The notes beneath the pieces were generated by a model, which was given only the letters and a program-made list of their open reading frames with translations, searched no databases and was not told the DNA's origin. The position numbers and the translations under genes are program-made. Below, in pieces: positions 5,053 to 25,468 of a stretch of DNA of 32,000 nt (position 1 is the first letter of the stretch; every line of letters begins with the position of its first letter). Source of the DNA: Moraxella nasicaprae (GTDB lineage Bacteria; Pseudomonadota; Gammaproteobacteria; Pseudomonadales; Moraxellaceae); contig NZ_CP089977.1 of NCBI RefSeq assembly GCF_025643275.1, forward strand, positions 2,074,667 to 2,106,666, written 5' to 3'.

Positions 5053-5060
5053 GGGCGAGC

Positions 5061-7373: not shown

Positions 7374-7907
7374 TTAGGGCAAACACTTGCCAATAGTTTG
7401 ACTGATGCTTCTACCGCCAAGGCTTTGACCGCCTTACAAGGTAAGGTGCTTGATGAGAAGATTACGGCTGTCAATAACGCTTTGACAAGCCACCGCCATA
7501 ATTGGAATGAGATTGATAGCAAGCCCAGCACTTTTACGCCATCAAGCCATACACATACCATCGCTAATATTACCGATTATGATGTTAGGCAAATCAGTAC
7601 TGAAGATTTGGATAGCATTACCAAATGGGGTATTTATGGACAAGGGGCAAACAATCAATCACTGACTGAGAGAAATTATCCTGTACCTAATGAAGCTGGC
7701 ACATTGGAAGTTATGCCTGGCACTTACGGACTTCGCCAAAGATTTACTACATTTGCCACTCATCGTCAGTTTGAGCGCTCAAGAAACAATGCTCAAACAG
7801 GCTGGAATGCGTGGACGGAGCTATCAAACACATGGGACGCCATACGAGGCAAGCCAAATAACCTTGCTACCACCACAAGCAATGTCGCCTCTGCCACCAA
7901 GCTCCAA

Positions 7908-8258
7908 ACCGCCCGCAATATCGCAATGACTGGCGATGGCTCGTGGAATGTCAATTTTGACGGCTCACAAAATGCCACAGGTGCCTTAACGCTTGCAAAC
8001 AGTGGTGTTACGGCAGGCTCCTATAACTCAGTAACGGTGGACGCAAAAGGACGAGTTACCGCAGGCTTAACCCAAACGCACGGACTTGTAACCGCCACCA
8101 CCGCCACAGGGACAACCAACACCGCCACCACGAACACTAATACATTTCTAAACATTGTGGCAAGCGGCGTAGGTCAAACTGCGTCTGTTGGCTCAAGTAC
8201 GCAAATCACAGGCACAAACGGCATCAGCGTATCATCAGACACTGCTGGTAAGCTCATT
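7908..8258 (+). repeat. Tail-fibre internal direct repeat, copy 2
   Basis: See copy 1. This copy is in frame. Confidence 0.8.
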
Positions 8259-8680
8259 GTTACCCGTGATAGCAACTCGCCCACCGCCACCAAACTTGCC
8301 ACCGCCCGTAACATCGCCCTAACAGGAGCGGTAACTGGCAATGTCAATTTTGATGGGTCGGGGAATGTGAGTTTGGCAACAACTGTGCAATCCGTGAGTG
8401 GCAAAGTGGTTGTTATGACTGGTACTATCGAACATGGTGGCACCATTCCACTACCAGCAGGATTTAATGAAAATCAATGCAAGTGGATGGTTTCAATGAA
8501 TGATGACAATCCAACTCGAACAACATGGGATATTAACGAAGGAGGGTATCATTTACATTATCGCCAAGAATGCTTTACGGAAGGTCGTGTGGTAACAGCT
8601 AGGACTTATCTAGGTGGACATTCTGGCTCATCATCTGTTGTGAACAGTAAGGCTAACTACATCATCATTGGAGTGAAATA

Positions 8681-9259
8681 ATGTATTACATTTTTAATAA
8701 AGATGGTAAAAATATCGGTCAGTGCGACTTTGAGCCAAACGCAGAAGACTTAGCAAGTCGCCAAGAAAGCTATCAACTGTACAAAAATCCTTTACAACAA
8801 GGGGATGAAATTTGGCTTGTTGATGGAAAAATCACAATCATCAGCCCGGCTCAATTAACGACAGAAGAGCTTAAAGTCCAACACCAATCCCAAATCTGGG
8901 AAGCCATCAAACAAAAACGTCACACCATCACTCGTGGCGGGGTTTATGTCAAATCGGTCAAAAAGTGGTTTCATACCGATGATAGTTCTCGCACACAGTA
9001 TTTGGCATTGCAAATCTTGCCACAGCTACCGCCTGATTTAATGTGGAAAACGATGGATAACAGCTTTGTCAAATTGGATAAGGCGTTATTGACCGAGCTT
9101 GCGATGACGATTTTGACCGCCGAGCAAGCTGATTTTGCTAATGCTGAAAAGCACCGTTTGGCAATGTTACAGGCACAAAATCCCCTAGAATACGATTATT
9201 CAAAGGGTTGGACAGCCATTTATGACCCAACTGACAAACAAGGAGCAAGCGATGAATAA
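8681..9259 (+). CDS. Probable tail fibre assembly/chaperone protein
   Basis: 192 aa. The start overlaps the fibre stop (taATG), which is the gpG/Mu-U chaperone position. Assigned mainly by synteny. Confidence 0.5.
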   Translation: MYYIFNKDGKNIGQCDFEPNAEDLASRQESYQLYKNPLQQGDEIWLVDGKITIISPAQLTTEELKVQHQSQIWEAIKQKRHTITRGGVYVKSVKKWFHTDDSSRTQYLALQILPQLPPDLMWKTMDNSFVKLDKALLTELAMTILTAEQADFANAEKHRLAMLQAQNPLEYDYSKGWTAIYDPTDKQGASDE

Positions 9260-9707
9260 AGTCTATTTAGCTTGCTATCGTGGGCGTGGCGACAAATTGA
9301 CCCACCGCCTATGTGATGGCATTACCCGCTTTTTTACTCGTGGCAAATACAGCCACACCGAGATTGCCATCGCCTTGCCTGACGGTCGTTACCAATGCTA
9401 TTCATCAAGCGTGCGTGAAGGTGGTGTGCGTACCAAGATAATGCCCTTAAATCCTGACAAATGGGACTTAATCGCCCTTGGTGGCATTTCGCCCGAACAA
9501 ATTACCCGCTATTACCGACAAAATCACGGCTCGGATTATGACCTTTTGGGGGCGTTGGGCTGTGTGGCGGGACTACCACAGAACGCAGATAAATTCTTTT
9601 GTTCTGAGTGGTGCTACAACGCCATTTTTGGGTCAAATCAAGGCTTTCGGTTTAGCCCCAATCAGCTTGCCGAGATTGTTCGCCATTTATCCATTTTGGA
9701 TAACTAA
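9252..9707 (+). CDS. Hypothetical protein, possibly a permuted papain-like (YiiX/C92-type) cysteine hydrolase
   Basis: Start chosen at MNKVYLACYRG, preceded by AAGGAG. His (KYSHTEIAI) precedes Cys (KFFCSEWCY), the order seen in permuted NlpC/P60-like enzymes. This is a weak motif-level call. Confidence 0.35.
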   Translation: MNKVYLACYRGRGDKLTHRLCDGITRFFTRGKYSHTEIAIALPDGRYQCYSSSVREGGVRTKIMPLNPDKWDLIALGGISPEQITRYYRQNHGSDYDLLGALGCVAGLPQNADKFFCSEWCYNAIFGSNQGFRFSPNQLAEIVRHLSILDN

Positions 9708-9732
9708 TTTTGTTCTTATTTAGGAGAAATCA

Positions 9733-10254
9733 ATGCCAAATCCAAGTAACTACCCAACCCAAATCACGCCACATTTTAGCTATCGTGAGCTGACAAGAAG
9801 CGAAACTGCCAGACGGCATGGAGTTGCAAACATCCCAAGCCAAAGCGATCTTGCCAACATCACTTATACCGCTCATCAGCTTGAAAAGGTGCGTGCTTAT
9901 TTAAATGACAAATACCAAAAGCCCATCGCCATCATCGTAACTTCTTGCTTTCGTAGCGAAAGGGTTAATAAACTGGTTGGTGGTTCAAAAACTTCCGCTC
10001 ATCGCTTTGGACTGGCGGCGGATTGTGATGCTACAGGCTTTACATCAAGGGCATTTGCCAAAGAAATCATTGAGATGCGTGATAAGGGCTTGATTGCCTT
10101 TGATCAGCTGATTTTGGAATTTCCAGAAAGAGGTGATGGAGCATGGGTGCATTTGGGCTTTAAAAAAGACGGCAAAGGTCAAAGAAATCAAATCTTAACC
10201 GCCACCAAACGAAACGGCAAAACTGTGTATTTGCAAGGCTTGCAAGGAGGTTAA
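9733..10254 (+). CDS. Peptidase M15 family (D-Ala-D-Ala carboxypeptidase-like) peptidoglycan hydrolase, probable endolysin
   Basis: HFSYRELTRSETARRHGVANIP, the Zn ligand motif SAHRFGLAAD (Hx6D) and AWVHLGF. RBS taggag lies upstream. Confidence 0.8.
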   Translation: MPNPSNYPTQITPHFSYRELTRSETARRHGVANIPSQSDLANITYTAHQLEKVRAYLNDKYQKPIAIIVTSCFRSERVNKLVGGSKTSAHRFGLAADCDATGFTSRAFAKEIIEMRDKGLIAFDQLILEFPERGDGAWVHLGFKKDGKGQRNQILTATKRNGKTVYLQGLQGG

Positions 10255-10362
10255 GATGATTTAGATTAAACGATAAAAAAAGAAAAGACGGTCGGTATGA
10301 CGGTGTGCGACCACCGCCATACCAGCCACGCAGTGTGAGTGCGTAAGCCCAAAGAACCGCCT

Positions 10363-10374
10363 GCTTAGCTAAGC
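10363..10374. promoter_or_regulatory. Perfect 12-bp palindrome GCTTAGCTAAGC upstream of the com-like gene (candidate operator or terminator element)
   Basis: Seen directly. It lies 41 nt before ATG 10415 and is followed by a T-rich run (tgttatttta). An imperfect 16-bp stem (10290-10305 pairing with 10312-10327) lies just upstream. Confidence 0.3.
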
Positions 10375-10414
10375 GGTGTTATTTTACCACAAAATCCATA
10401 GGATTACGCAAAAA

Positions 10415-10609
10415 ATGAAACAGCGTTGCACAAATTGCAAAAAACTTTTAGCCATTGGCACGGGCAATTTTGCCATCAAATGCCCAAGATGCAAAACTTT
10501 AAATCAAATTAACACGCAAACCAAAGAATGCCACGAGCATCATAACCCTTTAAATAAGGAAACCTATGAATGCTCAAAACAACCCCCAACCAACCCAATC
10601 CACCCCTAA
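10415..10609 (+). CDS. com: Mu Com-like zinc-finger translational regulator
   Basis: MKQRCTNCKKLLAIGTGNFAIKCPRCKTLNQI has the same CxxC...KLL...I.CPRCK arrangement as phage Mu Com (MKSIRCKNCNKLLFKA...IEIRCPRCKRHII, recalled from memory). It sits at the prophage right end and its 3' end overlaps the next gene by 44 nt, as com does with mom. Confidence 0.75.
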   Translation: MKQRCTNCKKLLAIGTGNFAIKCPRCKTLNQINTQTKECHEHHNPLNKETYECSKQPPTNPIHP

Positions 10610-11443
10610 CCCCAAACAATACCCAAAATCAAAACCCAGTGTCGGCAGTCTCTTTGCTGGCATTGGCGGATTTGACTTGGGATTTGAAAACGCAGGTTTT
10701 TACACCAGCTGGCAAGTGGAAATTGACCCCATTTGCAAAGCGGTGTTATCAGACCGTTTCCCCCACGCCACCCAGTTTGACGATGTTAGAAACTGCTTGC
10801 CCAAAATCCAAGCCCTGCCAAATGGCGGAAGTGTCGATGTCATGTCTCCATGGCAGGCAAACGAGCAGGACTTCACGGACAGCGGACAGGCTTGTTCTTT
10901 GATGCTATCGGTATTATCCAAGCAATTAAGCCAAGATTTGTCGTGCTTGAAAATGTCACAGGTCTCATCAATTCCAACGATGGCAAAGACCTACAAACAG
11001 TCATTGAAACGCTTGCCCAATGCGGGTATGTGGGATTTTGGCGAGTGCTGGACAGCCGTTATTTCGGAGTCCCCCAAAAACGCCGTAGAGTATTCTTGGT
11101 TGCAGGTCTTGGAGAATACCCACCATTTAGCCTTATGGCTGACTTGGGGTCAGTGGAACGCATTTCTGGCAAGACTGAATCGCAATCGTGCTGGGCGGAC
11201 GCACACCATACGCTACTGGCAGGGGTCGGCTCATCCGCCATCAACATCAATTGTGCTGATATCATCGCTGTGCCAAATGGACGGCATCAGATGGCTGTCA
11301 GGGAGCGAACGACTGTCGATGATGGGCTTTGCAAAGGATTGGATGAGACCAACGCTTGTGAGGCTAGGACTGCGGGAAACGCCGTCTGTCCGCAAGTCGC
11401 ACAGTTTATCGCAAGCCACTTGATGACGTCTTTTAACCCATAA
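10566..11443 (+). pseudogene. DNA (cytosine-5) methyltransferase, disrupted by several frameshifts
   Basis: Motif I SLFAGIGGFDLGFENAGF is in frame 1. A PCQ triplet occurs only in frame 2 (10813-10821). AGKRAGLHGQRTGLF, ENVTGL and QKRRRVFLVAG are in frame 3. Motif IX ERLSMMGFAKDW is back in frame 1, and motif X GNAVCPQVAQFI is in frame 3. Confidence 0.65.
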
Positions 11444-11506
11444 TTGAACCAGCATTTCAACCATTTTGAGTGTCTTGAACGCCTTTAACTTTAAAAGGAT
11501 AAGTTT

Positions 11507-12373
11507 ATGACACTCAATTCACTTTCTAACAAACATTACAAAACCGCCCCTTTGCCATTTACAGGGCAAAAGCGAATGTTTTTAAGGCACTTTGAAAAAA
11601 TCTTAAAAGATAATGTCTCAAATGATGGAGAGGGCTTTACGGTGCTTGATGTCTTTGGCGGTTCTGGACTGCTTGCTCACAATGTCAAGCGTATCTTGCC
11701 CAAAGCCAACGTCATTTATAACGACTTTGACGGCTATGCTGAGCGTTTGGCTCATATTCCCACCACCAATCGCTTACGCCAAGAGCTGTTTGAAATCTTA
11801 AAAGACGAGCCAAGAAGTGCCAAATTATCAAACACCACCAAAGCCAAAGCCCTAGACCATATCCGTAAAAGTGCCGACAACGGGACTTTTGTTGATGTGC
11901 AAACCTTGGCAGGTTGGTTGTTGTTTAGCGGACGACAAGTGGGCAATCTTGATGAGTTTTTGGCAGAGTCCACCTTTTATAACCGTATTGTCAAAACTGA
12001 CTACGACACCGCAGATGGCTATCTGGAAGGTCTTATCATTGAATGCCTAGATTTTGAAAAGCTGTTACAAAAATACCAAGACACCCCAAATTGCTTGCTT
12101 CTGCTTGACCCGCCTTATGTTTGCACCGCACAGGGGGCGTATGCCAAGCACGGCTATTTTGGCATGACGAAGTTTTTACGGCTTATGCAGTTTGTGCGTC
12201 CACCCTTTATCTTTTTTAGCTCCACCAAAAGCGAGTTGATGGATTATATGGCTTATGTGGAGCAGTACGAGCCACCCACTTGGCAAAGGGTTGGGGGCTT
12301 TGAGCGGATTGTTGTCAATGCTCGCATTAACGCACAAATTGGCTATGAAGACAATATTTTGGTTAAGTTTTAA
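11507..12373 (+). CDS. N6-adenine DNA methyltransferase, Dam-like (D12 class); no adjacent restriction gene
   Basis: The AdoMet motif VLDVFGGSGLLAH precedes the catalytic LLLLDPPYV (alpha-group order). The ORF is an intact 288 aa with RBS aaaagga. Confidence 0.7.
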   Translation: MTLNSLSNKHYKTAPLPFTGQKRMFLRHFEKILKDNVSNDGEGFTVLDVFGGSGLLAHNVKRILPKANVIYNDFDGYAERLAHIPTTNRLRQELFEILKDEPRSAKLSNTTKAKALDHIRKSADNGTFVDVQTLAGWLLFSGRQVGNLDEFLAESTFYNRIVKTDYDTADGYLEGLIIECLDFEKLLQKYQDTPNCLLLLDPPYVCTAQGAYAKHGYFGMTKFLRLMQFVRPPFIFFSSTKSELMDYMAYVEQYEPPTWQRVGGFERIVVNARINAQIGYEDNILVKF

Positions 12374-12463
12374 AAAGTGAAAATTCATTACAAAAAGACT
12401 GGACTACGCTCTATGAGTACGGCAGTATGTGCCTTATAAATTAACAAGTTAAAGGTAAATGTA

Positions 12464-12910
12464 ATGTTAGACATTCAAACGGTTTCAAGTTTTGTCCAAG
12501 AGTATGGTGTGGTAGATTTTGACTGCGAGATGGACGATGGCGTACTTTGGTTTCGGGGTGTCAATTGTTATTTGATTATTGGCAAAGTTACTGACAAGCA
12601 GGTGTTTTTGACGGTTTGGGAAGATGATGAGTGCAATGAAGTCATTGAAAACTTTGAAATCCAGAACCTTGATGAATTGAATGTTTGCTTAAAGAAATAC
12701 GCCTTGATTGCTCAGGTAAGCACCAAGCAAGATGAAACCATCCAAAAACCAACCGACACCACGATGATTGATATCTACTTTAAGCTCATTAAAGACAAAT
12801 TGGCAGAACATCAAATCAACCTTGATTTTGAAAAACAAAGCCAAGCCGAAAAGCTGGTCATTCGCCACATTGAGGATAAACTGGTGGAGGTTATCAAATT
12901 TTTGCAATAA
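12464..12910 (+). CDS. Hypothetical acidic protein (last prophage gene)
   Basis: 148-aa ORF followed by a strong terminator. I recognise no motif. Confidence 0.5.
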   Translation: MLDIQTVSSFVQEYGVVDFDCEMDDGVLWFRGVNCYLIIGKVTDKQVFLTVWEDDECNEVIENFEIQNLDELNVCLKKYALIAQVSTKQDETIQKPTDTTMIDIYFKLIKDKLAEHQINLDFEKQSQAEKLVIRHIEDKLVEVIKFLQ

Positions 12911-12983: not shown

Positions 12984-15900
12984 TTATCTTGCACATAGTG
13001 CAACAAAACCAAAAAGATATTTATTGCATAAATAGGCGAGATTTTTCGCGGCGGGCATCATCATCTCCAATCTTCCTGTATTTATTAGGGCTGCCAATCT
13101 ATTTGCTTCTTCCTGATTGGCTTTTGGTGCATTTGCTCTAATTTTATTATAATAAGCCCCATTCCATCTCACCACCTCCTCAGCCATCTGCACTGCCATA
13201 TTCACATCTTCTTCTGCTAGGGCTGCTACTGTCCCTGCGATGAGTTTGGCTTGGTTGATGATACTTTGTCTTTGAGAGTCTGTTAGGGTAGTGGGGTCAT
13301 CTATTTGCCAATCTGCCCAGATTTCTGCCATACTAGCACCTAAGGCACCTGCTTGGCAAGTTGATCCTTGTGCTTTGGCAGATAGACAGCCTGTGAGTCC
13401 TGCGGCAAGTTTGTGGGCGATGTTGTTAATGTTGCCATCTGTATCAATGGGTTTAACCAAATGAGCAAAGGCTTGTTGATGTGATAGGGCAATCAGTTGA
13501 TTACCAAGATTGGTTTTTAGGTTGTCTTCTAAGTCTGTGCCATAGATGGCAGATTGTAGTAGGCTTTTTGAAGTACTTTGGGCAATGCCTTTGATGAATC
13601 TGTCATTAAGACTTAACTGGGTTTGGTCAATGCCTTGTATGTTTAGTCCTTTATCAATCTTATTGCTGATACCAGCACTGGCGATGGCAAAGGCAAGCTG
13701 TTTGGCATTGTCTTTATTGCCAAGCTGCTTGATGGCGGCTTTGATGTTGCCTTGATTATTGATTAGGCTGATGGTGGCTTGTTCGGCAAGGGTGCTAAGA
13801 GCGGTATTTGCCATCGCTGTCAGGGTATGACTGCCCAATAAAGTACCGTTAATCGGTGCAATACCGCCTGTTGCCATTCCCATGGCAATGGTTAAGATGG
13901 CAGCCCCTGCTGGAGTAAGACCTGCTTGCTGGTAGTTCCATTCTTTTTGAGTGAGAATAAGGGTCTGCCAGTCGATGTTGTTTTGCTGGATGAGCGAATT
14001 TAGATAGCTGTATTCGGGCTGTTTGGCAAGTTCAAGGATTTGTTCCTTGATGACTTTTCTTTGGACATCTTTTTCGCTGATAGGGATTTGTACCACAAGA
14101 CCGCCATCGGCAACAAAACTAGGCGGTGTACTACCTGTAAAGCTGGGTAAAACAGCTGTTTGAGTATATTGTCCTTTATCTTGCATTCGTTGCCAAAAGA
14201 CTTCATTGGCTTGTGAGGTGGTGCTTATATTGAGAGTGCTAATCGCTGGAAGTAGATGAACTTTGCCGCCTGCTTCAATATTTGCACCAGACAGATAGCT
14301 AAATATACTGCCTTGTAGGGTGGTGTCGCCAAGAGATTTGGTATTGATATAACGAGCGGTCAAAGAGGCGGGCAGGGCAGTAATTTGCAATTTGTGATGA
14401 TTGGTTGTTGCATTGCCTGCTTTAACGCCCAAGATGCGTCTTTTGACCTGAGTATCTTGATGATGCTCATGCACATCATTGACGCTAAATAGATTGATTG
14501 CACCTGTAGCAAAGACACTGATATTGCCTGTCGTACTCATTTTGGTGGCATAAAAGTCAGCATTACTTTGATGACCTTGAGCGGTTAATGAGATATGATG
14601 GGCAGCCAAAGAAGTCGGTAGGGCGGTGGAATACTCATCTTGGGTTTGAACATTGATGGTTTTGCGATTGAGTGCACTGCCTTTTTTGCTGCTACTTTCA
14701 TCGTAGCGATGGGTATAATTGATGGCATGGTCAACGAGTAAATGATGATTAGCAGCGATGGTTAGGTTAGACTTAGCATCAATGTTGCCAGCTTGTACAA
14801 CCAAATGGACTGGCTGCCCTGCTTGATTGGTCTTGGTGGCAGATAGGCTGACATTACTGGCTGTGATTTGACTTGGCACAAACAAAGCATGGTTGCGATA
14901 ATAAGAGGAGTTTTCCTTGCCCATTTCATAGATGTTGTGTGAGCCATCGACTAGGATGCTGGCGGTGATGTTTTGGTCGTTTTTGTGGTATTTGTCAGTT
15001 AATGTACCCTGTGCTTGCAAAGTGATGTTATTGGCAGCGGTCAAGTTCGATGAACGGATTAGAATGCCTTGAGCAGCATTCATGCTGATATTGTTTTGTG
15101 CTGTCAGGGTGGAGGGCTGATATTCTGTACCGATTGGATTTCTTTTCAAGTCAGCCAGTTGGTCAGTCAATCTTGATACATCAGCTTGCAAAGCCTCCTC
15201 TTTTGATTTGGCAGGCAAATGCTTAGATAATACCGATTCTAATTCGTTGATTTTGGCGTTGGTTTGGTTAATTAGTCGGTCATAGTCAGCCACAGTCTTT
15301 GGATCTGCCGGCGAAGTGGGTGATGCTGAACGAAATCTAATCCCTGATGGTGGGGGAGGCGGTGGGGGAGGTAAGAGAGTGTCGCCAAGCGATCTGCTGT
15401 TTTCTGGTAGAGATGGCGTGGCAGGATTGCTTAATGCCTGTCTTTGACTATGATGCAAAGCTAGCTGAAATTGCAGAGAATTAATCTGAGTCTGCAATTG
15501 TCGATAAGACTGATATGCGTCAGATTTTTGAAAGATTGCTAATGCTTGCTTGGCTTGTTTGAGCTGTTTTTCTATATTGTCAATCGTATGTATGGGCAAT
15601 GCTTGACCATCTAGGCGATTGCTTAGAGCATCAACCAGAACGGAGCCCTTCCCAGCATTTAGATGGATATTTTTACCTGTAATATTTGCCCCTTGTAAAA
15701 CAATCTCTTGTGCGGATATGGTCAAATTTCCTTTTGGAGTAAGTTGTGCTAATTGACCTGAGCCAATACCCTTAGTGCCTTCATGACCGATTAAATCAAT
15801 GTTGCCATTTTGGGACTGTAGCCATAAATCTCCATCAGCAGATAATTGATGTGTCTGAGGTCGAATGTGCAATGCTTGCTCGCTAATAATAGATAAGTCG

Positions 15901-17531
15901 CCACTTAGTGTCGTAGTTTGCGGATTTTTGGTTAACAGCTGTGTTTTGGTTGCATTAGCAAATAATTGACCCTGCGGCTTGATGGACAGCTTTTTGGTTT
16001 TTAATAAAATTGCACCAGCCGTCAGATTGGTCGATCCTGTAATCGTATGCAAACCAAGTGAAACGCTACTTAAGATACCCTTAGCACTTAAATTACCACC
16101 TATATTTTGATCGCCTGTGGTATAAAGCGTTAAATGATGATCGGCATTGGCAGTCGTGTTTTGCCAAACTAGGTCTTTTCTAGACTCAATAGAGATGTTT
16201 TTGTGTGCAGTTAAATTACTGTTAGTCAGCGTTTGATTTTGGTGTGTGTAGAGATTGATTGATCCATCTGCATTTAACTGGTTGTCAGTCATTTGTGCAC
16301 TGCCAGCTAATGATGCTACAGTGATGTTGCCTGTTGTACGAATACTACTTTTACCGATAGATAGAGCGTCTTTGGTAACTAACTGGACATTGCTGGCAGT
16401 CATATTGGACTGCTGTACGCTGAGCGTCTTGGCTTTGGTTTCAATGTTGCTGGCAGTTAAATTTGTTTGATGTAGATTAAGGGTGTTGTTTGTTGTTAAA
16501 AGGATGTCTCTCCCTCCTGTCACATTGCCTGCCAAAGTTTGATTGTTAGCATTTAGGTGGATATTGCCTTGTTTGGTGCTCATCACCCCTTGTGCCGACT
16601 GGTAAATATCTGTTTGGCTACTTAGTAGGATTTGATGATCTGCATGTATATTGCCTGTGTTTTTGATGTATCCATCACTACTGACATAGACTTGCTGAGC
16701 GGCGTTTAAGCTACCAGCATTATTGACACCAACGCCCTGATCGGTAACAATCAAACGAATATTGCCAGCATACATACCGCCAAGCTGACCTGTATCAATA
16801 GCAATGGTGGCAGCGGAAGATTTATTTGATGATGCTTGAACAGGAGTGGAAAGTCCATTGGTAATAATATTAGAGCCTGCAACAACATTAATACTATCAT
16901 TGGCATGGATTTTGCCATTTAATTCCACTGCTTTAGCATATAGATTAAGATAATTGGCTTGATGCCTATCGGACATACCTGTTTGACCGATATTAATTTT
17001 ACCAGCATTGATTTGATGGCTAATGTTGCCCTGCAAATGACTAACCGTGCCAGTTGTTAATGTTGCCTCATTTGTGTTAATAAACCCAGCACCAGAAACT
17101 ACAATTCCTGACGGGTTGGCAATGATAACATTGGCTGTTTGTCCAGCAACCTCAATAATACCAGCAATATTGGTGGCTTTACTACTGTTAATTTCATTGA
17201 TGATGGTATGGGCAGAACCTTGTTGTAAAAAAGGATTACCCTCAATCTGATTGGCAAGCTGTGTCTGTGTACTACCACGAGCATTGTTTAGCACGACACC
17301 TATGTCATTAACATTGAACCTTTCGTATTGATTATGAGATATGCCATTAACAGGTGTGCGAATCTGTACCACAGGAACAGCTTGTCCATTAGTATGAGTT
17401 CCTGCAAGAATAATGGGTTTTTTATTAGAATCTGCTTTTGGATCGCTGATAACTTGGGCAATGCTTGATGTTGAAATTGATAAAAGAATGGCAGAAATGG
17501 CAATATTCAAAGATGATTTTGAAAATAGCAT
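12984..17531 (-). CDS. cdiA: CdiA/filamentous-haemagglutinin-type TPS exoprotein, toxin-less truncated copy (1457 shared codons plus a 58-aa tail)
   Basis: Identical to the 1779-aa copy through VVRWN. It then reads GAYYNKIRAN...GRLEMMMPAAKNLAYLCNKYLFGFVALCAR*. The last 25 or so codons lie in the putative prophage end. Confidence 0.85.
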   Translation of the reverse strand: MLFSKSSLNIAISAILLSISTSSIAQVISDPKADSNKKPIILAGTHTNGQAVPVVQIRTPVNGISHNQYERFNVNDIGVVLNNARGSTQTQLANQIEGNPFLQQGSAHTIINEINSSKATNIAGIIEVAGQTANVIIANPSGIVVSGAGFINTNEATLTTGTVSHLQGNISHQINAGKINIGQTGMSDRHQANYLNLYAKAVELNGKIHANDSINVVAGSNIITNGLSTPVQASSNKSSAATIAIDTGQLGGMYAGNIRLIVTDQGVGVNNAGSLNAAQQVYVSSDGYIKNTGNIHADHQILLSSQTDIYQSAQGVMSTKQGNIHLNANNQTLAGNVTGGRDILLTTNNTLNLHQTNLTASNIETKAKTLSVQQSNMTASNVQLVTKDALSIGKSSIRTTGNITVASLAGSAQMTDNQLNADGSINLYTHQNQTLTNSNLTAHKNISIESRKDLVWQNTTANADHHLTLYTTGDQNIGGNLSAKGILSSVSLGLHTITGSTNLTAGAILLKTKKLSIKPQGQLFANATKTQLLTKNPQTTTLSGDLSIISEQALHIRPQTHQLSADGDLWLQSQNGNIDLIGHEGTKGIGSGQLAQLTPKGNLTISAQEIVLQGANITGKNIHLNAGKGSVLVDALSNRLDGQALPIHTIDNIEKQLKQAKQALAIFQKSDAYQSYRQLQTQINSLQFQLALHHSQRQALSNPATPSLPENSRSLGDTLLPPPPPPPPSGIRFRSASPTSPADPKTVADYDRLINQTNAKINELESVLSKHLPAKSKEEALQADVSRLTDQLADLKRNPIGTEYQPSTLTAQNNISMNAAQGILIRSSNLTAANNITLQAQGTLTDKYHKNDQNITASILVDGSHNIYEMGKENSSYYRNHALFVPSQITASNVSLSATKTNQAGQPVHLVVQAGNIDAKSNLTIAANHHLLVDHAINYTHRYDESSSKKGSALNRKTINVQTQDEYSTALPTSLAAHHISLTAQGHQSNADFYATKMSTTGNISVFATGAINLFSVNDVHEHHQDTQVKRRILGVKAGNATTNHHKLQITALPASLTARYINTKSLGDTTLQGSIFSYLSGANIEAGGKVHLLPAISTLNISTTSQANEVFWQRMQDKGQYTQTAVLPSFTGSTPPSFVADGGLVVQIPISEKDVQRKVIKEQILELAKQPEYSYLNSLIQQNNIDWQTLILTQKEWNYQQAGLTPAGAAILTIAMGMATGGIAPINGTLLGSHTLTAMANTALSTLAEQATISLINNQGNIKAAIKQLGNKDNAKQLAFAIASAGISNKIDKGLNIQGIDQTQLSLNDRFIKGIAQSTSKSLLQSAIYGTDLEDNLKTNLGNQLIALSHQQAFAHLVKPIDTDGNINNIAHKLAAGLTGCLSAKAQGSTCQAGALGASMAEIWADWQIDDPTTLTDSQRQSIINQAKLIAGTVAALAEEDVNMAVQMAEEVVRWNGAYYNKIRANAPKANQEEANRLAALINTGRLEMMMPAAKNLAYLCNKYLFGFVALCAR

Positions 17532-17673
17532 TTTAACTTCCTTGTAAAATTGTCAGCTCCTTCTTAGATTTAGTGAAAGTTTAGCAAATACCAAAAAATA
17601 GTTCAAGTCGGAATTGGTATGATTTTTGAGGAAATTTAATCACGGGTTGGTGTGTATGAATACCTTATTTAAC
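13171..17673 (-). repeat. 4503-bp perfect direct repeat, copy A (cdiA promoter, 5'UTR and codons 1 to about 1454)
   Basis: Offset 7795 to copy B. Every stretch I compared is identical and all six-frame ORFs match in both copies. Identity ends at 17673/17674 on one side. On the other side, mismatches appear at 13170 and 13167. Confidence 0.9.
17578..17606 (-). promoter_or_regulatory. Candidate sigma70 promoter of cdiA copy A
   Basis: The - strand reads TTGAAC, a 17-nt spacer (tattttttggtatttgc), then TAAACT, about 45 nt upstream of the ATG. SD AAGGAAG lies 5 nt before the ATG. Confidence 0.5.
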
Positions 17674-18142
17674 TAATCTTTTATGTAACGAACTTCAAAA
17701 TTATAATAATATTAAAAATCAATTATTAACTAATTTCTTTGATTTTTGAGTTCATAAACAAGCATTTTGTTCGTCTTATTATGCCACATCTTATAGATAT
17801 TATAAGTCTTTTGCTTGCAGAAATGCCAAGACAAGACTGCGAAAAAATTAAAAAAATGAGAGTTTGGTTCCCACAAGAACGGGAGAGGAGCGGTGTTCTT
17901 ATGTGTCATGTAAAGCAGACTATCTGTGCAATACAGCCTAAAACAAGGCATGGAGCATCCGCTAAAACTGATGGCACGCACCACCTTTATCCCATGGATG
18001 GATGACATCTGGGATCGGGGTATGTACGAAAGACAGAGTGCTGATTATTACTGGCAAGGTTATAAAGATTTGTGCTTTAGAGTGCAGGCGTATGTCAATG
18101 AGAATCCCAAGCTAAGAGACATGTATCCCTAAACCGCTTTAT

Positions 18143-18178
18143 CAAGAATAAAAAACCACCATCGAAAAGATGGTGGTT
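18143..18178 (-). terminator. Rho-independent terminator ending the cdiA-immunity operon
   Basis: Stem aaccaccatc (18154-18163) pairs with gatggtggtt (18169-18178) around the loop gaaaa. On the - strand it is followed by ttttttatt. It lies 50 nt after the stop at 18228. Confidence 0.75.
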
Positions 18179-19129: not shown

Positions 19130-19990
19130 CTAAAAATCCACCATATATGGAGTAAAATCAAAGTCGCCATCTTGACCCGAAAAAATATGGGCTGCGTAAC
19201 TATCAATGGCTTCTTGTGGATTATTCAATCTTTTTATGCTAAATACATCAGCATTTTGGATAATATAGATATTTTCTCCCTGATCAATAGATGAGCAAAA
19301 TAATTGGAAACCAGTGTTGCTATAGTCGTCCATAGTTCGTGTATCTAATAGATTTCTTAACTCAAAATAATCATTTCTATTATCCCCTGTATACTGATCG
19401 TCATCATAATCTCTCACGATGCGATGATTAAACTTAGCATCTAAAAAATCACAATATTTATCTCTATTTTGTCTAGTTTCAAAATTATCTATAATAGAGT
19501 GAATTGGACTTTGTAAAGTTGTTGGCAGACGGCTTTTAAAAGGACTAGTAACTGTGTCTTCTGCAATATGCCACGCATCTGTGTGGAGTATCCAAGAGCG
19601 AAGAACAAAAACTGGTAAATTTTTGTAAAAAATACTATCAGGATCTTGTTCGTAGCAAGGAATTGATGGATATGATAAATAAAAACATTGATGATTAACA
19701 ATTATACCAAATTGAGTAATATCTCCCATAATTTCTGGATAAGGTGATTTTTCTACAGCATAGAAGAACTCTGCTTTTAAAAGCAGCTGATAGGTTTTGG
19801 GTTGAAGGCTTTCAAAGGGTTGGACTAAATATTCCTTTAAATCGCCTTTTGAAATAAAATGGTAGCCATCATATTTTCTTTCATTGCATTTTAAACTTAG
19901 TTCCATAAATGGAATATCATCAAAATCATTTTGATAAAAGACTTTATCACAACTTTCCTCTAACTGAGTTTTAGTCAAAAATAGTTTCAT
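19130..19990 (-). CDS. Putative CdiI-type immunity protein for the HNH toxin (family unrecognised)
   Basis: 286 aa. The start overlaps the cdiA stop as ATGA (19987-19990), with GGAG inside the last cdiA codons, indicating translational coupling. This is the canonical immunity position. Confidence 0.65.
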   Translation of the reverse strand: MKLFLTKTQLEESCDKVFYQNDFDDIPFMELSLKCNERKYDGYHFISKGDLKEYLVQPFESLQPKTYQLLLKAEFFYAVEKSPYPEIMGDITQFGIIVNHQCFYLSYPSIPCYEQDPDSIFYKNLPVFVLRSWILHTDAWHIAEDTVTSPFKSRLPTTLQSPIHSIIDNFETRQNRDKYCDFLDAKFNHRIVRDYDDDQYTGDNRNDYFELRNLLDTRTMDDYSNTGFQLFCSSIDQGENIYIIQNADVFSIKRLNNPQEAIDSYAAHIFSGQDGDFDFTPYMVDF

Positions 19991-22900
19991 GATTTTTTTC
20001 TCCGCTTAAATAATTCTTGATGAACTTTTTCGGTTGCATCTTTGAGTATCTGCTGCTGTTGCCTTAACAAATATGCTCTATATTTAGGAGATATTTCTTT
20101 ATTCCCCTTAACATATTTAACCCATCCATCAGTACCTGTTTCAATCTTAGAACCCTTAGAAGAGTTAAGATGTTTAGGTAGTGGCTGTAAATTAGAAGGA
20201 TTATTTATGAGCTTTTCTTGTACATCTTTTGGCAAATCATTAAAGCCTGGAATTTTTTTAAATTCCGCTCTGGGGAGAATATGATCAAAAGATGCTACAG
20301 CGTCATCGGGAAAGAATTTTTTGGTATTTGTAAAAGGATCCAAATACATTACCTTGCCAGTTTTAGCATCTACCCAATCACCTTTGATTAAAATCTCGGC
20401 AGCATTACCATATTTGTTGCCAAAATCACAACAATTCGCATTATGCACCCACACACCCAATCTGCCCACATGATAGGTGTGAAAGTCATCCACTTCGATA
20501 TTATAGACAGTGTCGGTGTGGTTGGGTAGTAGGTATTGGCTTATAACTTCTACTTCTTGATTGTTTCTATCAAGTAGTATCATGCCTTGTTCTAGTAAAG
20601 ACGCTTTTAGCCAGCCTGTATCTTTAATCCAAAATGGGTGTTCAGCTGTGGTTTCTAAGGTTTCAATTTGACCTTGATGGTTTTTGACCGTTACTTGGAA
20701 AATGGGTTGGTCAGGTGTTGCTTTGGTGGCAATGACAGGACGATAGCCGTATTCTAGGGTAATGTCATTTCTTGTCCAAATCAGTTCACCACCTGTGAAG
20801 GTTTCGATGGTTTTCAAGCCTTCTGATGTTTCAATCAGGGTTCCTGCGGTAAAGCAAACGGTGCCTTTCTTGCACAGTTTAGAGATGCTATTGATAATAG
20901 CGGCACTAGCACCAGCACCAAAACCACCACCCAATCTATTTAAACTGGTGGTTGCATTCCACCTAACCACCTCCTCAGCCATCTGCACTGCCATATTCAC
21001 ATCTTCTTCTGCTAGGGCTGCTACTGTCCCTGCGATGAGTTTGGCTTGGTTGATGATACTTTGTCTTTGAGAGTCTGTTAGGGTAGTGGGGTCATCTATT
21101 TGCCAATCTGCCCAGATTTCTGCCATACTAGCACCTAAGGCACCTGCTTGGCAAGTTGATCCTTGTGCTTTGGCAGATAGACAGCCTGTGAGTCCTGCGG
21201 CAAGTTTGTGGGCGATGTTGTTAATGTTGCCATCTGTATCAATGGGTTTAACCAAATGAGCAAAGGCTTGTTGATGTGATAGGGCAATCAGTTGATTACC
21301 AAGATTGGTTTTTAGGTTGTCTTCTAAGTCTGTGCCATAGATGGCAGATTGTAGTAGGCTTTTTGAAGTACTTTGGGCAATGCCTTTGATGAATCTGTCA
21401 TTAAGACTTAACTGGGTTTGGTCAATGCCTTGTATGTTTAGTCCTTTATCAATCTTATTGCTGATACCAGCACTGGCGATGGCAAAGGCAAGCTGTTTGG
21501 CATTGTCTTTATTGCCAAGCTGCTTGATGGCGGCTTTGATGTTGCCTTGATTATTGATTAGGCTGATGGTGGCTTGTTCGGCAAGGGTGCTAAGAGCGGT
21601 ATTTGCCATCGCTGTCAGGGTATGACTGCCCAATAAAGTACCGTTAATCGGTGCAATACCGCCTGTTGCCATTCCCATGGCAATGGTTAAGATGGCAGCC
21701 CCTGCTGGAGTAAGACCTGCTTGCTGGTAGTTCCATTCTTTTTGAGTGAGAATAAGGGTCTGCCAGTCGATGTTGTTTTGCTGGATGAGCGAATTTAGAT
21801 AGCTGTATTCGGGCTGTTTGGCAAGTTCAAGGATTTGTTCCTTGATGACTTTTCTTTGGACATCTTTTTCGCTGATAGGGATTTGTACCACAAGACCGCC
21901 ATCGGCAACAAAACTAGGCGGTGTACTACCTGTAAAGCTGGGTAAAACAGCTGTTTGAGTATATTGTCCTTTATCTTGCATTCGTTGCCAAAAGACTTCA
22001 TTGGCTTGTGAGGTGGTGCTTATATTGAGAGTGCTAATCGCTGGAAGTAGATGAACTTTGCCGCCTGCTTCAATATTTGCACCAGACAGATAGCTAAATA
22101 TACTGCCTTGTAGGGTGGTGTCGCCAAGAGATTTGGTATTGATATAACGAGCGGTCAAAGAGGCGGGCAGGGCAGTAATTTGCAATTTGTGATGATTGGT
22201 TGTTGCATTGCCTGCTTTAACGCCCAAGATGCGTCTTTTGACCTGAGTATCTTGATGATGCTCATGCACATCATTGACGCTAAATAGATTGATTGCACCT
22301 GTAGCAAAGACACTGATATTGCCTGTCGTACTCATTTTGGTGGCATAAAAGTCAGCATTACTTTGATGACCTTGAGCGGTTAATGAGATATGATGGGCAG
22401 CCAAAGAAGTCGGTAGGGCGGTGGAATACTCATCTTGGGTTTGAACATTGATGGTTTTGCGATTGAGTGCACTGCCTTTTTTGCTGCTACTTTCATCGTA
22501 GCGATGGGTATAATTGATGGCATGGTCAACGAGTAAATGATGATTAGCAGCGATGGTTAGGTTAGACTTAGCATCAATGTTGCCAGCTTGTACAACCAAA
22601 TGGACTGGCTGCCCTGCTTGATTGGTCTTGGTGGCAGATAGGCTGACATTACTGGCTGTGATTTGACTTGGCACAAACAAAGCATGGTTGCGATAATAAG
22701 AGGAGTTTTCCTTGCCCATTTCATAGATGTTGTGTGAGCCATCGACTAGGATGCTGGCGGTGATGTTTTGGTCGTTTTTGTGGTATTTGTCAGTTAATGT
22801 ACCCTGTGCTTGCAAAGTGATGTTATTGGCAGCGGTCAAGTTCGATGAACGGATTAGAATGCCTTGAGCAGCATTCATGCTGATATTGTTTTGTGCTGTC

Positions 22901-25326
22901 AGGGTGGAGGGCTGATATTCTGTACCGATTGGATTTCTTTTCAAGTCAGCCAGTTGGTCAGTCAATCTTGATACATCAGCTTGCAAAGCCTCCTCTTTTG
23001 ATTTGGCAGGCAAATGCTTAGATAATACCGATTCTAATTCGTTGATTTTGGCGTTGGTTTGGTTAATTAGTCGGTCATAGTCAGCCACAGTCTTTGGATC
23101 TGCCGGCGAAGTGGGTGATGCTGAACGAAATCTAATCCCTGATGGTGGGGGAGGCGGTGGGGGAGGTAAGAGAGTGTCGCCAAGCGATCTGCTGTTTTCT
23201 GGTAGAGATGGCGTGGCAGGATTGCTTAATGCCTGTCTTTGACTATGATGCAAAGCTAGCTGAAATTGCAGAGAATTAATCTGAGTCTGCAATTGTCGAT
23301 AAGACTGATATGCGTCAGATTTTTGAAAGATTGCTAATGCTTGCTTGGCTTGTTTGAGCTGTTTTTCTATATTGTCAATCGTATGTATGGGCAATGCTTG
23401 ACCATCTAGGCGATTGCTTAGAGCATCAACCAGAACGGAGCCCTTCCCAGCATTTAGATGGATATTTTTACCTGTAATATTTGCCCCTTGTAAAACAATC
23501 TCTTGTGCGGATATGGTCAAATTTCCTTTTGGAGTAAGTTGTGCTAATTGACCTGAGCCAATACCCTTAGTGCCTTCATGACCGATTAAATCAATGTTGC
23601 CATTTTGGGACTGTAGCCATAAATCTCCATCAGCAGATAATTGATGTGTCTGAGGTCGAATGTGCAATGCTTGCTCGCTAATAATAGATAAGTCGCCACT
23701 TAGTGTCGTAGTTTGCGGATTTTTGGTTAACAGCTGTGTTTTGGTTGCATTAGCAAATAATTGACCCTGCGGCTTGATGGACAGCTTTTTGGTTTTTAAT
23801 AAAATTGCACCAGCCGTCAGATTGGTCGATCCTGTAATCGTATGCAAACCAAGTGAAACGCTACTTAAGATACCCTTAGCACTTAAATTACCACCTATAT
23901 TTTGATCGCCTGTGGTATAAAGCGTTAAATGATGATCGGCATTGGCAGTCGTGTTTTGCCAAACTAGGTCTTTTCTAGACTCAATAGAGATGTTTTTGTG
24001 TGCAGTTAAATTACTGTTAGTCAGCGTTTGATTTTGGTGTGTGTAGAGATTGATTGATCCATCTGCATTTAACTGGTTGTCAGTCATTTGTGCACTGCCA
24101 GCTAATGATGCTACAGTGATGTTGCCTGTTGTACGAATACTACTTTTACCGATAGATAGAGCGTCTTTGGTAACTAACTGGACATTGCTGGCAGTCATAT
24201 TGGACTGCTGTACGCTGAGCGTCTTGGCTTTGGTTTCAATGTTGCTGGCAGTTAAATTTGTTTGATGTAGATTAAGGGTGTTGTTTGTTGTTAAAAGGAT
24301 GTCTCTCCCTCCTGTCACATTGCCTGCCAAAGTTTGATTGTTAGCATTTAGGTGGATATTGCCTTGTTTGGTGCTCATCACCCCTTGTGCCGACTGGTAA
24401 ATATCTGTTTGGCTACTTAGTAGGATTTGATGATCTGCATGTATATTGCCTGTGTTTTTGATGTATCCATCACTACTGACATAGACTTGCTGAGCGGCGT
24501 TTAAGCTACCAGCATTATTGACACCAACGCCCTGATCGGTAACAATCAAACGAATATTGCCAGCATACATACCGCCAAGCTGACCTGTATCAATAGCAAT
24601 GGTGGCAGCGGAAGATTTATTTGATGATGCTTGAACAGGAGTGGAAAGTCCATTGGTAATAATATTAGAGCCTGCAACAACATTAATACTATCATTGGCA
24701 TGGATTTTGCCATTTAATTCCACTGCTTTAGCATATAGATTAAGATAATTGGCTTGATGCCTATCGGACATACCTGTTTGACCGATATTAATTTTACCAG
24801 CATTGATTTGATGGCTAATGTTGCCCTGCAAATGACTAACCGTGCCAGTTGTTAATGTTGCCTCATTTGTGTTAATAAACCCAGCACCAGAAACTACAAT
24901 TCCTGACGGGTTGGCAATGATAACATTGGCTGTTTGTCCAGCAACCTCAATAATACCAGCAATATTGGTGGCTTTACTACTGTTAATTTCATTGATGATG
25001 GTATGGGCAGAACCTTGTTGTAAAAAAGGATTACCCTCAATCTGATTGGCAAGCTGTGTCTGTGTACTACCACGAGCATTGTTTAGCACGACACCTATGT
25101 CATTAACATTGAACCTTTCGTATTGATTATGAGATATGCCATTAACAGGTGTGCGAATCTGTACCACAGGAACAGCTTGTCCATTAGTATGAGTTCCTGC
25201 AAGAATAATGGGTTTTTTATTAGAATCTGCTTTTGGATCGCTGATAACTTGGGCAATGCTTGATGTTGAAATTGATAAAAGAATGGCAGAAATGGCAATA
25301 TTCAAAGATGATTTTGAAAATAGCAT
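19987..25326 (-). CDS. cdiA: CdiA-type contact-dependent inhibition toxin / filamentous haemagglutinin-family TPS exoprotein with a HINT-HNH C-terminus
   Basis: 1779 aa. Sec signal MLFSKSSLNIAISAILLSISTSSIAQ. TPS domain motifs VPVVQIRTP..GISHNQYERFNV, GNPFL and IIANPSGI match FhaB NPNL/NPNGI. Long FHA-type repeats, a P8 tract, and a pretoxin region ending in VVRWN. Confidence 0.9.
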   Translation of the reverse strand: MLFSKSSLNIAISAILLSISTSSIAQVISDPKADSNKKPIILAGTHTNGQAVPVVQIRTPVNGISHNQYERFNVNDIGVVLNNARGSTQTQLANQIEGNPFLQQGSAHTIINEINSSKATNIAGIIEVAGQTANVIIANPSGIVVSGAGFINTNEATLTTGTVSHLQGNISHQINAGKINIGQTGMSDRHQANYLNLYAKAVELNGKIHANDSINVVAGSNIITNGLSTPVQASSNKSSAATIAIDTGQLGGMYAGNIRLIVTDQGVGVNNAGSLNAAQQVYVSSDGYIKNTGNIHADHQILLSSQTDIYQSAQGVMSTKQGNIHLNANNQTLAGNVTGGRDILLTTNNTLNLHQTNLTASNIETKAKTLSVQQSNMTASNVQLVTKDALSIGKSSIRTTGNITVASLAGSAQMTDNQLNADGSINLYTHQNQTLTNSNLTAHKNISIESRKDLVWQNTTANADHHLTLYTTGDQNIGGNLSAKGILSSVSLGLHTITGSTNLTAGAILLKTKKLSIKPQGQLFANATKTQLLTKNPQTTTLSGDLSIISEQALHIRPQTHQLSADGDLWLQSQNGNIDLIGHEGTKGIGSGQLAQLTPKGNLTISAQEIVLQGANITGKNIHLNAGKGSVLVDALSNRLDGQALPIHTIDNIEKQLKQAKQALAIFQKSDAYQSYRQLQTQINSLQFQLALHHSQRQALSNPATPSLPENSRSLGDTLLPPPPPPPPSGIRFRSASPTSPADPKTVADYDRLINQTNAKINELESVLSKHLPAKSKEEALQADVSRLTDQLADLKRNPIGTEYQPSTLTAQNNISMNAAQGILIRSSNLTAANNITLQAQGTLTDKYHKNDQNITASILVDGSHNIYEMGKENSSYYRNHALFVPSQITASNVSLSATKTNQAGQPVHLVVQAGNIDAKSNLTIAANHHLLVDHAINYTHRYDESSSKKGSALNRKTINVQTQDEYSTALPTSLAAHHISLTAQGHQSNADFYATKMSTTGNISVFATGAINLFSVNDVHEHHQDTQVKRRILGVKAGNATTNHHKLQITALPASLTARYINTKSLGDTTLQGSIFSYLSGANIEAGGKVHLLPAISTLNISTTSQANEVFWQRMQDKGQYTQTAVLPSFTGSTPPSFVADGGLVVQIPISEKDVQRKVIKEQILELAKQPEYSYLNSLIQQNNIDWQTLILTQKEWNYQQAGLTPAGAAILTIAMGMATGGIAPINGTLLGSHTLTAMANTALSTLAEQATISLINNQGNIKAAIKQLGNKDNAKQLAFAIASAGISNKIDKGLNIQGIDQTQLSLNDRFIKGIAQSTSKSLLQSAIYGTDLEDNLKTNLGNQLIALSHQQAFAHLVKPIDTDGNINNIAHKLAAGLTGCLSAKAQGSTCQAGALGASMAEIWADWQIDDPTTLTDSQRQSIINQAKLIAGTVAALAEEDVNMAVQMAEEVVRWNATTSLNRLGGGFGAGASAAIINSISKLCKKGTVCFTAGTLIETSEGLKTIETFTGGELIWTRNDITLEYGYRPVIATKATPDQPIFQVTVKNHQGQIETLETTAEHPFWIKDTGWLKASLLEQGMILLDRNNQEVEVISQYLLPNHTDTVYNIEVDDFHTYHVGRLGVWVHNANCCDFGNKYGNAAEILIKGDWVDAKTGKVMYLDPFTNTKKFFPDDAVASFDHILPRAEFKKIPGFNDLPKDVQEKLINNPSNLQPLPKHLNSSKGSKIETGTDGWVKYVKGNKEISPKYRAYLLRQQQQILKDATEKVHQELFKRRKKS
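19990..20439 (-). other. C-terminal toxin domain of CdiA: cysteine-less HNH-type nuclease (aa 1630-1779)
   Basis: SFDHILPRAEF...NPSNLQPLPKHLNSSKG matches the classic HNH pattern DHI.P...NLQ.L....N..K. Confidence 0.65.
20440..20856 (-). other. HINT (pretoxin-HINT / bacterial intein-like) domain of CdiA, aa 1491-1629
   Basis: CFTAGTLIET (Cys1), TAEHPFW (TxxH block B) and VYNIEVDDFHTYHVG..GVWVHN (terminal HN), followed by ANCC. Confidence 0.75.
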
Positions 25327-25468
25327 TTTAACTTCCTTGTAAAATTGTCAGCTCCTTCTTAGATTTAGTGAAAGTTTAGCAAATACCAAAAAATAGTTCA
25401 AGTCGGAATTGGTATGATTTTTGAGGAAATTTAATCACGGGTTGGTGTGTATGAATACCTTATTTAAC
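20966..25468 (-). repeat. 4503-bp perfect direct repeat, copy B
   Basis: See copy A (offset 7795). Confidence 0.9.
25373..25401 (-). promoter_or_regulatory. Candidate sigma70 promoter of full-length cdiA
   Basis: Identical to 17578-17606: TTGAAC, 17-nt spacer, TAAACT. Confidence 0.5.

Follow-up and report, generated by a model that had tools for sequence, protein, structure and literature searches.

Zhang, Iyer and Aravind (2011, PMC3113570) described HINT domains placed between PT-VENN and nuclease toxins and predicted that they release those toxins, and HINT was listed as a processing protease of type V secretion system (T5SS) toxins by Zhang et al. (2012, PMC3482391). Class I Pseudomonas CdiAs are defined by a domain of the bacterial intein-like (BIL) type, and self-cleavage of CdiA before delivery has been suggested (Mercy et al. 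2016, PMC4725963); that paper credits autocleavage of the P. syringae CdiA BIL to Amitai et al. (2003). A 2022 review gives WVHN as a class I pre-toxin motif, with cleavage after its Asn (PMC9086364), Acinetobacter CdiAs with PT-HINT have been tabulated (De Gregorio et al. 2019, PMC6336857), and BIL-headed mafB C-terminal (CT) cassettes occur in Neisseria (Jamet et al. 2015, PMC4287609). Here we analyse a stretch of 32,000 nucleotides from Moraxella nasicaprae (contig NZ_CP089977.1, positions 2,074,667 to 2,106,666; the whole stretch is hereafter the window), which carries two cdiA copies, and we concentrate on the C-terminus encoded by cdiA copy 1. Judged from its sequence, this is probably the toxin-delivery end of a Moraxella two-partner-secretion (TPS; CdiA/MhaB-type) polymorphic toxin, comprising a BIL domain and a His-Me-finger nuclease and followed by two candidate immunity genes.

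Like class I Pseudomonas CdiA (e.g. PSPTO_3229 of P. syringae DC3000), copy 1 has an A-type BIL with a terminal WVHN immediately before its polymorphic C-terminus. It differs in being short (1779 amino acids, aa) and Moraxella/Acinetobacter type-I-like, with PT-VENN upstream and no adjacent cdiB; furthermore, the PSPTO_3229 toxin is a colicin E7/E8/E9-type nuclease (PMC3113570), whereas that of copy 1 is DUF1524-like. Neisseria class 1 MafB shares with copy 1 and the Moraxella arrays an A-type BIL between constant region and variable toxin, and with those arrays the downstream orphan cassettes that start with BIL sequence and continue into new toxin/immunity pairs (PMC4287609). However, the N-terminus of MafB is DUF1020 and its export runs via MafA rather than a TPS system, and the Neisseria orphans hold almost the whole BIL where those of Moraxella hold 3' fragments of variable length. 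The PT-VENN/HINT/nuclease order of Zhang et al. (2011, 2012), in which HINT is predicted to be the releasing peptidase of T5SS toxins, is exactly that of copy 1, although both studies were purely computational and the copy 1 toxin family is not among their Pfam-deposited models. Within the genus, M. catarrhalis MhaB1/MhaB2/MhaC (MchA1/A2/B) resembles the pair in the window in comprising two TpsA paralogues with near-identical N-terminal parts (PMC3699455), and the M. catarrhalis CdiAs that measure about 2000 aa and contain DUF637 and PT-VENN, together with some Acinetobacter type-I CdiAs that have PT-HINT (PMC6336857), are likewise similar to copy 1. Unlike the reading offered here, the MhaB proteins are described as adhesins, without discussion of toxin/immunity functions or HINT (PMC3699455, PMC6336857). 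The architecture and the self-cleavage hypothesis were thus already in print between 2003 and 2016, and copy 1 adds no new principle; it is a well-preserved further case of a known layout, since the same layout has been published for Pseudomonas, Acinetobacter and Neisseria toxins. An initial annotation of this DNA had noted that HINT-processed toxins are mostly described for Rhs and other polymorphic toxins and had presented a self-cleaving CdiA as unusual, a view that the literature on HINT-bearing T5SS toxins does not support (PMC3113570, PMC3482391, PMC4725963, PMC9086364, PMC6336857).

The copy 1 gene is an uninterrupted open reading frame (ORF) of 1779 codons with intact catalytic motifs, and its product reads, in order, TPS domain, stalk, DUF637, a PT-VENN region ending in VVRWN, a Gly/Ala linker, PT-HINT and a final 150 aa. 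Its assignment to the CdiA/TpsA (type Vb) proteins follows from the N-terminal TPS domain, which also matches the NCBIfam model of the filamentous haemagglutinin (FHA) N-terminal domain (TIGR01901, E 1.3e-17), and from a pre-toxin region made up of DUF637 (aa 1240-1399, 75 bits in Pfam) and a VENN-type motif (PF04829, aa 1414-1455, 27.9 bits against a cut-off of 20.3). Scores for TPS, DUF637, PT-VENN and PT-HINT all exceed the curated Pfam cut-offs.

The identification of the HINT domain, specifically as an A-type BIL, is secure, because it matches a solved BIL from end to end and has Cys1, TxxH and His-Asn as its last two residues, followed by Ala. PF07591 (PT-HINT) matches over its entire length (profile positions 1-137 of 137, aa 1497-1630) with E 7.8e-25 and 88.2 bits against a cut-off of 27.7, and phmmer aligns the domain with 2LWY over its full span (E 3.2e-20); the alignment closes with VHN and brings Cys1, TxxH and the final HN of the two into register. 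A further match is 8W20, the HINT of a protein of the Rhs type (E 4e-11). Block A begins at C1491 (CFTAGT), block B is T1560-A-E-H1563 and block G is H1628-N1629 within WVHN (1626-1629). The complete HINT module seen by the initial annotation, with its Cys, TAEH and terminal HN, is hence borne out by both matches, and its residue numbering is exact (VVRWN 1453-1457, C1491, TAEH 1560-1563, WVHN 1626-1629, A1630, DHILP from 1681). It had also remarked that no nucleophile follows the Asn, and this holds not only for copy 1, where A1630 stands in place of Cys, Ser or Thr at position +1, but across related loci, in which +1 is Ala or Asp in 33 of 36 HINT ends. Among the Moraxella copies a nucleophile never occurs at +1, the terminal HN is invariant and the catalytic positions are all kept in full-length domains.

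Type A BILs form a thioester at their N-terminus and undergo C-terminal cleavage through Asn cyclisation without a +1 nucleophile, giving mostly cleavage products, with splicing by aminolysis also possible (PMC4031507). By analogy, the copy 1 HINT is most likely an autoproteolytic pre-toxin domain, with predicted cleavage at N1629/A1630 and possibly at V1490/C1491. Four other explanations of the locus were weighed, each of which is less likely than release by the BIL of a nuclease. One is that the BIL splices, excising itself and joining toxin to stalk, such that mature CdiA would lack HINT and its toxin would be freed by the VENN-type CdiA route. Type A BILs with a terminal His-Asn can splice, the amino group freed by Asn cyclisation attacking the N-terminal thioester (PMC4031507), and Cys1491 and HN1629 are both intact in a domain closely like the solved A-type BIL, with the PT-VENN motif kept upstream. 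Yet cleavage products dominate in type A BILs (PMC4031507), comparative-genomics papers and reviews of contact-dependent growth inhibition (CDI) favour release (PMC3113570, PMC9086364), and a V1490-A1630 joint would bring no obvious benefit; we regard splicing as very unlikely.

Turning to what would be released, the last 150 aa contain the motifs DHILP (1681-1685), NLQPLP (1712-1717) and NSSKG (1721-1725). A word-index protein search with this domain found five relatives, all of which follow the same ...WVHNA[ND]CCDF junction, and an exhaustive profile search extended the family to 397 clusters at E<=1e-3. The domain is nearly always found at the extreme C-terminus, within a few residues of the end, in more than 150 proteins of 77-6828 aa, and its N-terminal contexts include FHA/TPS, Rhs and extracellular contractile injection system (eCIS) proteins; this C-terminal position on proteins of widely differing length is the hallmark of a polymorphic-toxin warhead. 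In an alignment of 35 members D, H, N, N, S and K are invariant. The initial annotation had called the domain an HNH nuclease lacking cysteines. The HNH pattern is indeed present as a motif, and at the level of the family Pfam GmrSD_C is matched by 28 of the 35 members (E<0.1, best 9.1e-7), HNH_4 by 5 and AHH or GH-E by a few. Among solved structures the family profile matches best the HNH domain of BrxU, an enzyme of the GmrSD family (7p9k, E 0.003), aligned as vDHIxP...NLQ...N.K. The AlphaFold2 (AF2) model built from the family alignment (mean predicted local distance difference test, pLDDT, 88.2) has beta-beta-alpha order, with DH at the end of one strand, the Asn of NLQP at the next and N..K on the following helix, which agrees with the predicted fold, the positions being those of the catalytic His, the second-strand or loop Asn and the metal-binding Asn or His of a His-Me finger. 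The absence of cysteines applies to the beta-beta-alpha core and not to the whole 150-aa piece, which starts A-N-C-C. We accept the reading as a cysteine-less HNH-fold nuclease on the strength of the family-level evidence rather than of the single sequence; in terms of models and profiles, the best reading of the last 150 aa is a His-Me finger nuclease with GmrSD_C/DUF1524 as closest relative.

The GmrSD_C/DUF1524 nucleases (BrxU 7p9k; His-Me group 3) share with the toxin the DHIxP...N-L-Q...N..K pattern and a helical insert between two strands (PMC5714182), but GmrSD and BrxU are type IV restriction enzymes of large size that also contain a DUF262 NTPase domain, whereas the copy 1 domain is a predicted warhead of 150 aa with a candidate immunity protein. 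Similarity also extends to the Tox-DH-NNK clade of Zhang et al. (2011/2012), which likewise has DH in strand 1, an Asn pair and Lys in a helix, no zinc-binding cysteines and an association with HINT. That clade, however, has been linked with Pfam DUF1994 and with immunity proteins of the SUKH/SuFu/Imm33 types and is not listed with T5SS, and neither link is seen for copy 1; DUF1994, the model equated with Tox-DH-NNK, is matched neither by the copy 1 toxin (E<=10) nor by the 35 members (E<=0.1). The residue pattern fits Tox-DH-NNK, of which the toxin is a possible member. Membership of the classical zinc-finger HNH and colicin-DNase families was ruled out, there being no such Pfam match for the single sequence or for the 35 members. 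Only GmrSD_C and Sec31 match the copy 1 toxin in Pfam at E<=10, there is no PADLOC or NCBIfam match for the domain, and the toxin family is absent from curated profile libraries.

Directly downstream, the ATG of imm1 overlaps the TGA of cdiA copy 1 (ATGA). Two homologues of imm1 (P0161 and P0165) lie directly downstream of same-family toxins in metagenome contigs (L025 and L027), the toxin being fused to HINT in L025 and carrying a different N-terminus without HINT in L027. The next gene, imm2, aligns with the imm1 family in hhalign over 207 columns (72% probability, E 3.4e-5) and is 93% identical to a gene of M. oblonga (contig L001) that stands after a 36%-identical toxin variant. Since this near-identical gene follows a toxin variant, imm2 appears to be an orphan, an immunity gene retained although its toxin is missing, presumably guarding against neighbours that carry the variant. 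There is no Pfam, NCBIfam or PADLOC match for imm1, nor a PADLOC or NCBIfam match for either immunity protein. Full-length homology of imm1 with genes downstream in Marinicellulosiphila is not claimed, the two sharing a C-terminal motif alone (hhalign 20%, E 0.001).

Several observations weigh against the interpretation as a whole. Taken by itself, the copy 1 toxin reaches only E 6.7e-4 and 20 bits against GmrSD_C (PF07510, DUF1524), under the 23-bit cut-off, and a Foldseek search of the toxin model against the Protein Data Bank returned nothing significant (best E 0.11 and 0.48); the top entries, though insignificant, are His-Me nucleases, namely endonuclease I, BrxU and the Cas9 HNH domain. 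The released piece of 150 aa contains no obvious separate domain for cytoplasm entry. The case for imm1 and imm2 as candidate immunity genes consists of their position and their conserved linkage with the toxin family. Finally, the ORFs of the window include no TpsB/CdiB (ShlB/POTRA) gene despite the two TpsA genes, and export would thus rely on a transporter encoded elsewhere; in related Faucicola loci a TpsB gene does lie beside HINT-bearing FHA proteins, and in M. catarrhalis one TpsB, the unlinked or shared MhaC, serves two TpsAs with near-identical N-termini (PMC3699455). The sub-threshold profile similarity and the want of a significant structural match would also suit a domain that is no DNase at all, whether it acts on RNA, only binds without catalysis or is an HNH that has decayed, and some HNH-fold toxin clades (NucA-like) do act on RNA too (PMC3113570). 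Such an identity is nevertheless quite unlikely, given the invariance of D, H, N, N, S and K in 35 diverse members, the match of most of them to a His-Me nuclease family with a motif that aligns with the BrxU HNH, and the preference for DNA of practically all HNH-fold nucleases except NucA (Zhang 2011, PMC3113570).

From what is known of the families concerned we infer a course of events for release of a nuclease by the BIL, running from export through cleavage to DNA degradation. The C-terminus of the exported CdiA would be shown to a neighbouring cell and the BIL would cut its own flanks: cyclisation of Asn1629 would break the N1629/A1630 bond, and a thioester at Cys1491 could break the V1490/C1491 bond. 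A toxin of about 17 kDa with the N-terminus A-N-C-C would be set free and would degrade the DNA of the target, by means of one metal ion bound at the DH/N/N site. The producer would be shielded by the 286-aa protein of the gene downstream, which is translationally coupled, while the second gene may guard against a related toxin variant.

The boundaries of the exchangeable part of copy 1 were located from base composition and from comparison with related loci. G+C content (GC) is 0.427 in the constant region, 0.444 in the linker and 0.426 in the HINT domain, falling to 0.340 in the toxin, 0.317 in imm1 and 0.312 in imm2, and GC at third codon positions is 0.39 for HINT and 0.25 for the toxin. 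The break therefore sits at the HINT/toxin boundary (HN/A-N-C-C) and not at VVRWN, from where the initial annotation had seen AT-rich sequence. When the HINT region was compared by blastn with 24 related loci, mostly of Moraxella and Faucicola, identity of 88-92% to Moraxellaceae HINT copies was confined to 20865-20427; many shorter 3'-HINT fragments are present in these loci, and the homology of all of them stops at 20421-20429. The cdiA sequence adjoining HINT is, by comparison, about 70% identical or unalignable across species. Of 36 HINT ends translated from related loci (L001-L021), 31 continue as x-x-C-C before diverging (after WVHN: ADCC 19, DECC 6, ANCC 3, others including AKCC), and are followed by about 20 unrelated C-termini that include an HNH of the classical kind (L006) and a nuclease resembling NucA (L009). 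On the M. oblonga contig orphan cassettes form an array (MGRLGVWVHNANCC..., MGRLGVWVHNDECC...) with a small ORF after each.

As both the GC break and the homology break come after HN-A-N-C-C, HINT is part of a conserved handle rather than foreign DNA. The two cdiA copies of the window, on the other hand, diverge directly after the VVRWN codons (identity ends at 20955/13160), and since these copies part there while the breaks in GC and inter-species homology follow HN-A-N-C-C, we recognise two nested exchange points. The proposal that the region from VVRWN is a horizontally exchanged cassette accordingly stands as regards exchangeability, but the part that is foreign starts only after HN-A-N-C-C. 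The 3' coding part of HINT up to ...WVHN-A-[ND]-C-C most likely serves, on this comparative evidence, as a homology block for swapping toxin/immunity modules among Moraxellaceae. It could be argued that HINT is kept mainly for this purpose, as a handle for recombination or a spacer, with a protease activity that does not matter for delivery or has been lost and a toxin freed by the target cell or another mechanism. The contrast between HINT DNA and adjacent cdiA agrees with this, as do the 3' HINT fragments that head nearly all orphan cassettes, the silent or expressed BIL-headed cassettes of Neisseria MafB (PMC4287609) and the fact that PMC7738311 did not ascribe MafB processing to HINT. We consider it unlikely, however, because full copies keep all catalytic positions at the protein level, which would be needless in a mere homology block, and the HN is invariant although +1 is never a nucleophile in the Moraxella copies. 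A proposal compatible with release, which we rate as doubtful, is that in Moraxellaceae the BIL acts as the universal joint for cassettes exchanged at two tiers, VVRWN and HN/x-x-C-C, and that the Cys-Cys stub is needed for function. Were it true, the stub might take over the part of a classical cytoplasm-entry domain in import, or take part in a thiol/thioester hand-off with Cys1491, and CDI would include a delivery step that has not yet been described for it.

The conserved Cys-Cys pair would occupy residues 3-4 of every released toxin. In the Faucicola mancuniensis chromosome (L004, L005) the HINT-bearing FHA genes are broken into several large ORFs, and behind them stand orphan cassettes headed by HINT, up to six per array; the opposite strand carries genes for TpsB and for a Rep3-type replication initiator, which suggests that the region is a plasmid-derived island. 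The contig with the NucA-like toxin (BMPS01000028.1, labelled Streptomyces cinereus) has a GC of 0.456 and a Moraxella-like HINT (71% DNA identity) fused to that toxin, and is probably contamination or mis-binning in the Streptomyces cinereus assembly. The features of the copy 1 unit and of cdiA copy 2 are collected in Table 1.

Table 1. Features of the cdiA loci; coordinates are positions in the window.
Feature	Position	Strand	Evidence
cdiA copy 1, gene for a 1779-aa TpsA/CdiA-like polymorphic toxin	19987..25326 (including stop codon)	-	ORF, translation, Pfam, NCBIfam
TPS secretion domain, aa 25-290	24457..25254	-	PF05860, E 1.7e-40, 140 bits
Pre-toxin motif of PT-VENN type, aa 1414-1457, with VVRWN at its end; first junction for recombination	20956..21087	-	PF04829
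Gly/Ala-rich linker, aa 1458-1490	20857..20955	-	translation; GC 0.444
A-type BIL/PT-HINT domain, aa 1491-1629	20440..20856	-	PF07591; matches to 2LWY and 8W20; DNA identity to Moraxellaceae loci
A-N-C-C stub after the predicted scissile N1629/A1630 bond; end of conserved handle	20428..20439	-	related HINT ends; blastn edge
C-terminal toxin domain, 150 aa (1630-1779), His-Me finger/DUF1524-like	19990..20439	-	profile search, contexts, AF2, GC
Predicted catalytic core, D1681-H1682 ... N1712 ... N1721-S-S-K1724	20152..20286	-	family alignment, BrxU alignment
imm1, candidate cognate immunity gene, 286 aa	19130..19990	-	sequence, position, homologues
imm2, distant paralogue of imm1, 292 aa	18228..19106	-	hhalign; M. 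oblonga L001 homologue
Terminator-like hairpin and T-run ending the cdiA-imm1-imm2 unit	18154..18178	-	10-bp stem, 5 GC pairs, T tail
cdiA copy 2, with a 58-aa C-terminus after VVRWN	12984..17531	-	translation; repeat comparison

The second cdiA gene lies in tandem with the first. A repeat of 4514 bp (13160-17673 = 20955-25468) with 2 mismatches and a spacing of 7795 bp takes in 142 bp upstream of the ATG, and, apart from those two mismatches, copy 2 equals copy 1 through VVRWN. The 58-aa C-terminus of copy 2 has no relative among the fetched loci, no continuing frame and no immunity-like gene. Between the imm2 terminator and the copy-2 promoter, short ORFs on the forward strand (17739-18132) with a host-like GC of about 0.42 and no Pfam match are possibly the remnant of a gene disrupted by duplication of the cdiA unit. 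Copy 2 abuts a P2-like prophage. This segment occupies 1-12910 of the window, with gpU, gpD, baseplate V/J/I, a DUF4376 tail-fibre protein and a Peptidase_M15 endolysin, and also contains two DNA methyltransferase genes (C5 and N6). There is no tRNA gene in the window. On the other side, four contigs (L028-L031) obtained through the exact YajC sequence are 97-98% identical over yajC-secDF-matE and lose homology left of about 25463, where they carry ruvA or a pair of tyrosine-recombinase genes, that is, other inserts or none. The exact sequences of imm1, SecD and P0162 gave no record. Because such near-identical contigs lose homology there, the cdiA pair and the prophage appear to fill a strain-variable insertion slot. 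The edge of the island (~25440-25468) lies almost where the cdiA repeat has its 5' end (25468).

This setting bears on the last of the alternatives, in which the locus would be a non-functional remnant or an assembly artefact. The near-identical copies may have arisen recently, by a genuine duplication or by gene conversion, or may be an effect of assembly, and the tandem arrangement next to a prophage, the 58-aa end of copy 2 without immunity gene, the want of TpsB in the window and the related strains that have no such insert upstream of yajC would all suit a remnant. Copy 1 itself, however, retains an uninterrupted ORF, intact motifs, a coupled immunity gene and a terminator, and M. catarrhalis naturally holds two TpsAs with near-identical N-termini together with the single TpsB MhaC (PMC3699455). 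We hold a remnant or artefact to be highly improbable, and prefer to see in copy 1 a toxin gene whose BIL would release a nuclease.

The release of CdiA-CT from its stalk during delivery is poorly understood, as a 2022 review says explicitly (PMC9086364), and CdiAs with a built-in BIL protease constitute a natural test system for it. The Moraxella case is compact, having the full set of catalytic residues, a warhead of 150 aa and two candidate immunity genes, and the second cdiA copy, the same up to VVRWN, provides an internal control. Furthermore, the family of 397 clusters of HNH-type toxins and the immunity family of about 290 aa, the first unmodelled and the second unannotated and absent from curated libraries, are additions to the catalogue of polymorphic toxins and their immunity proteins.

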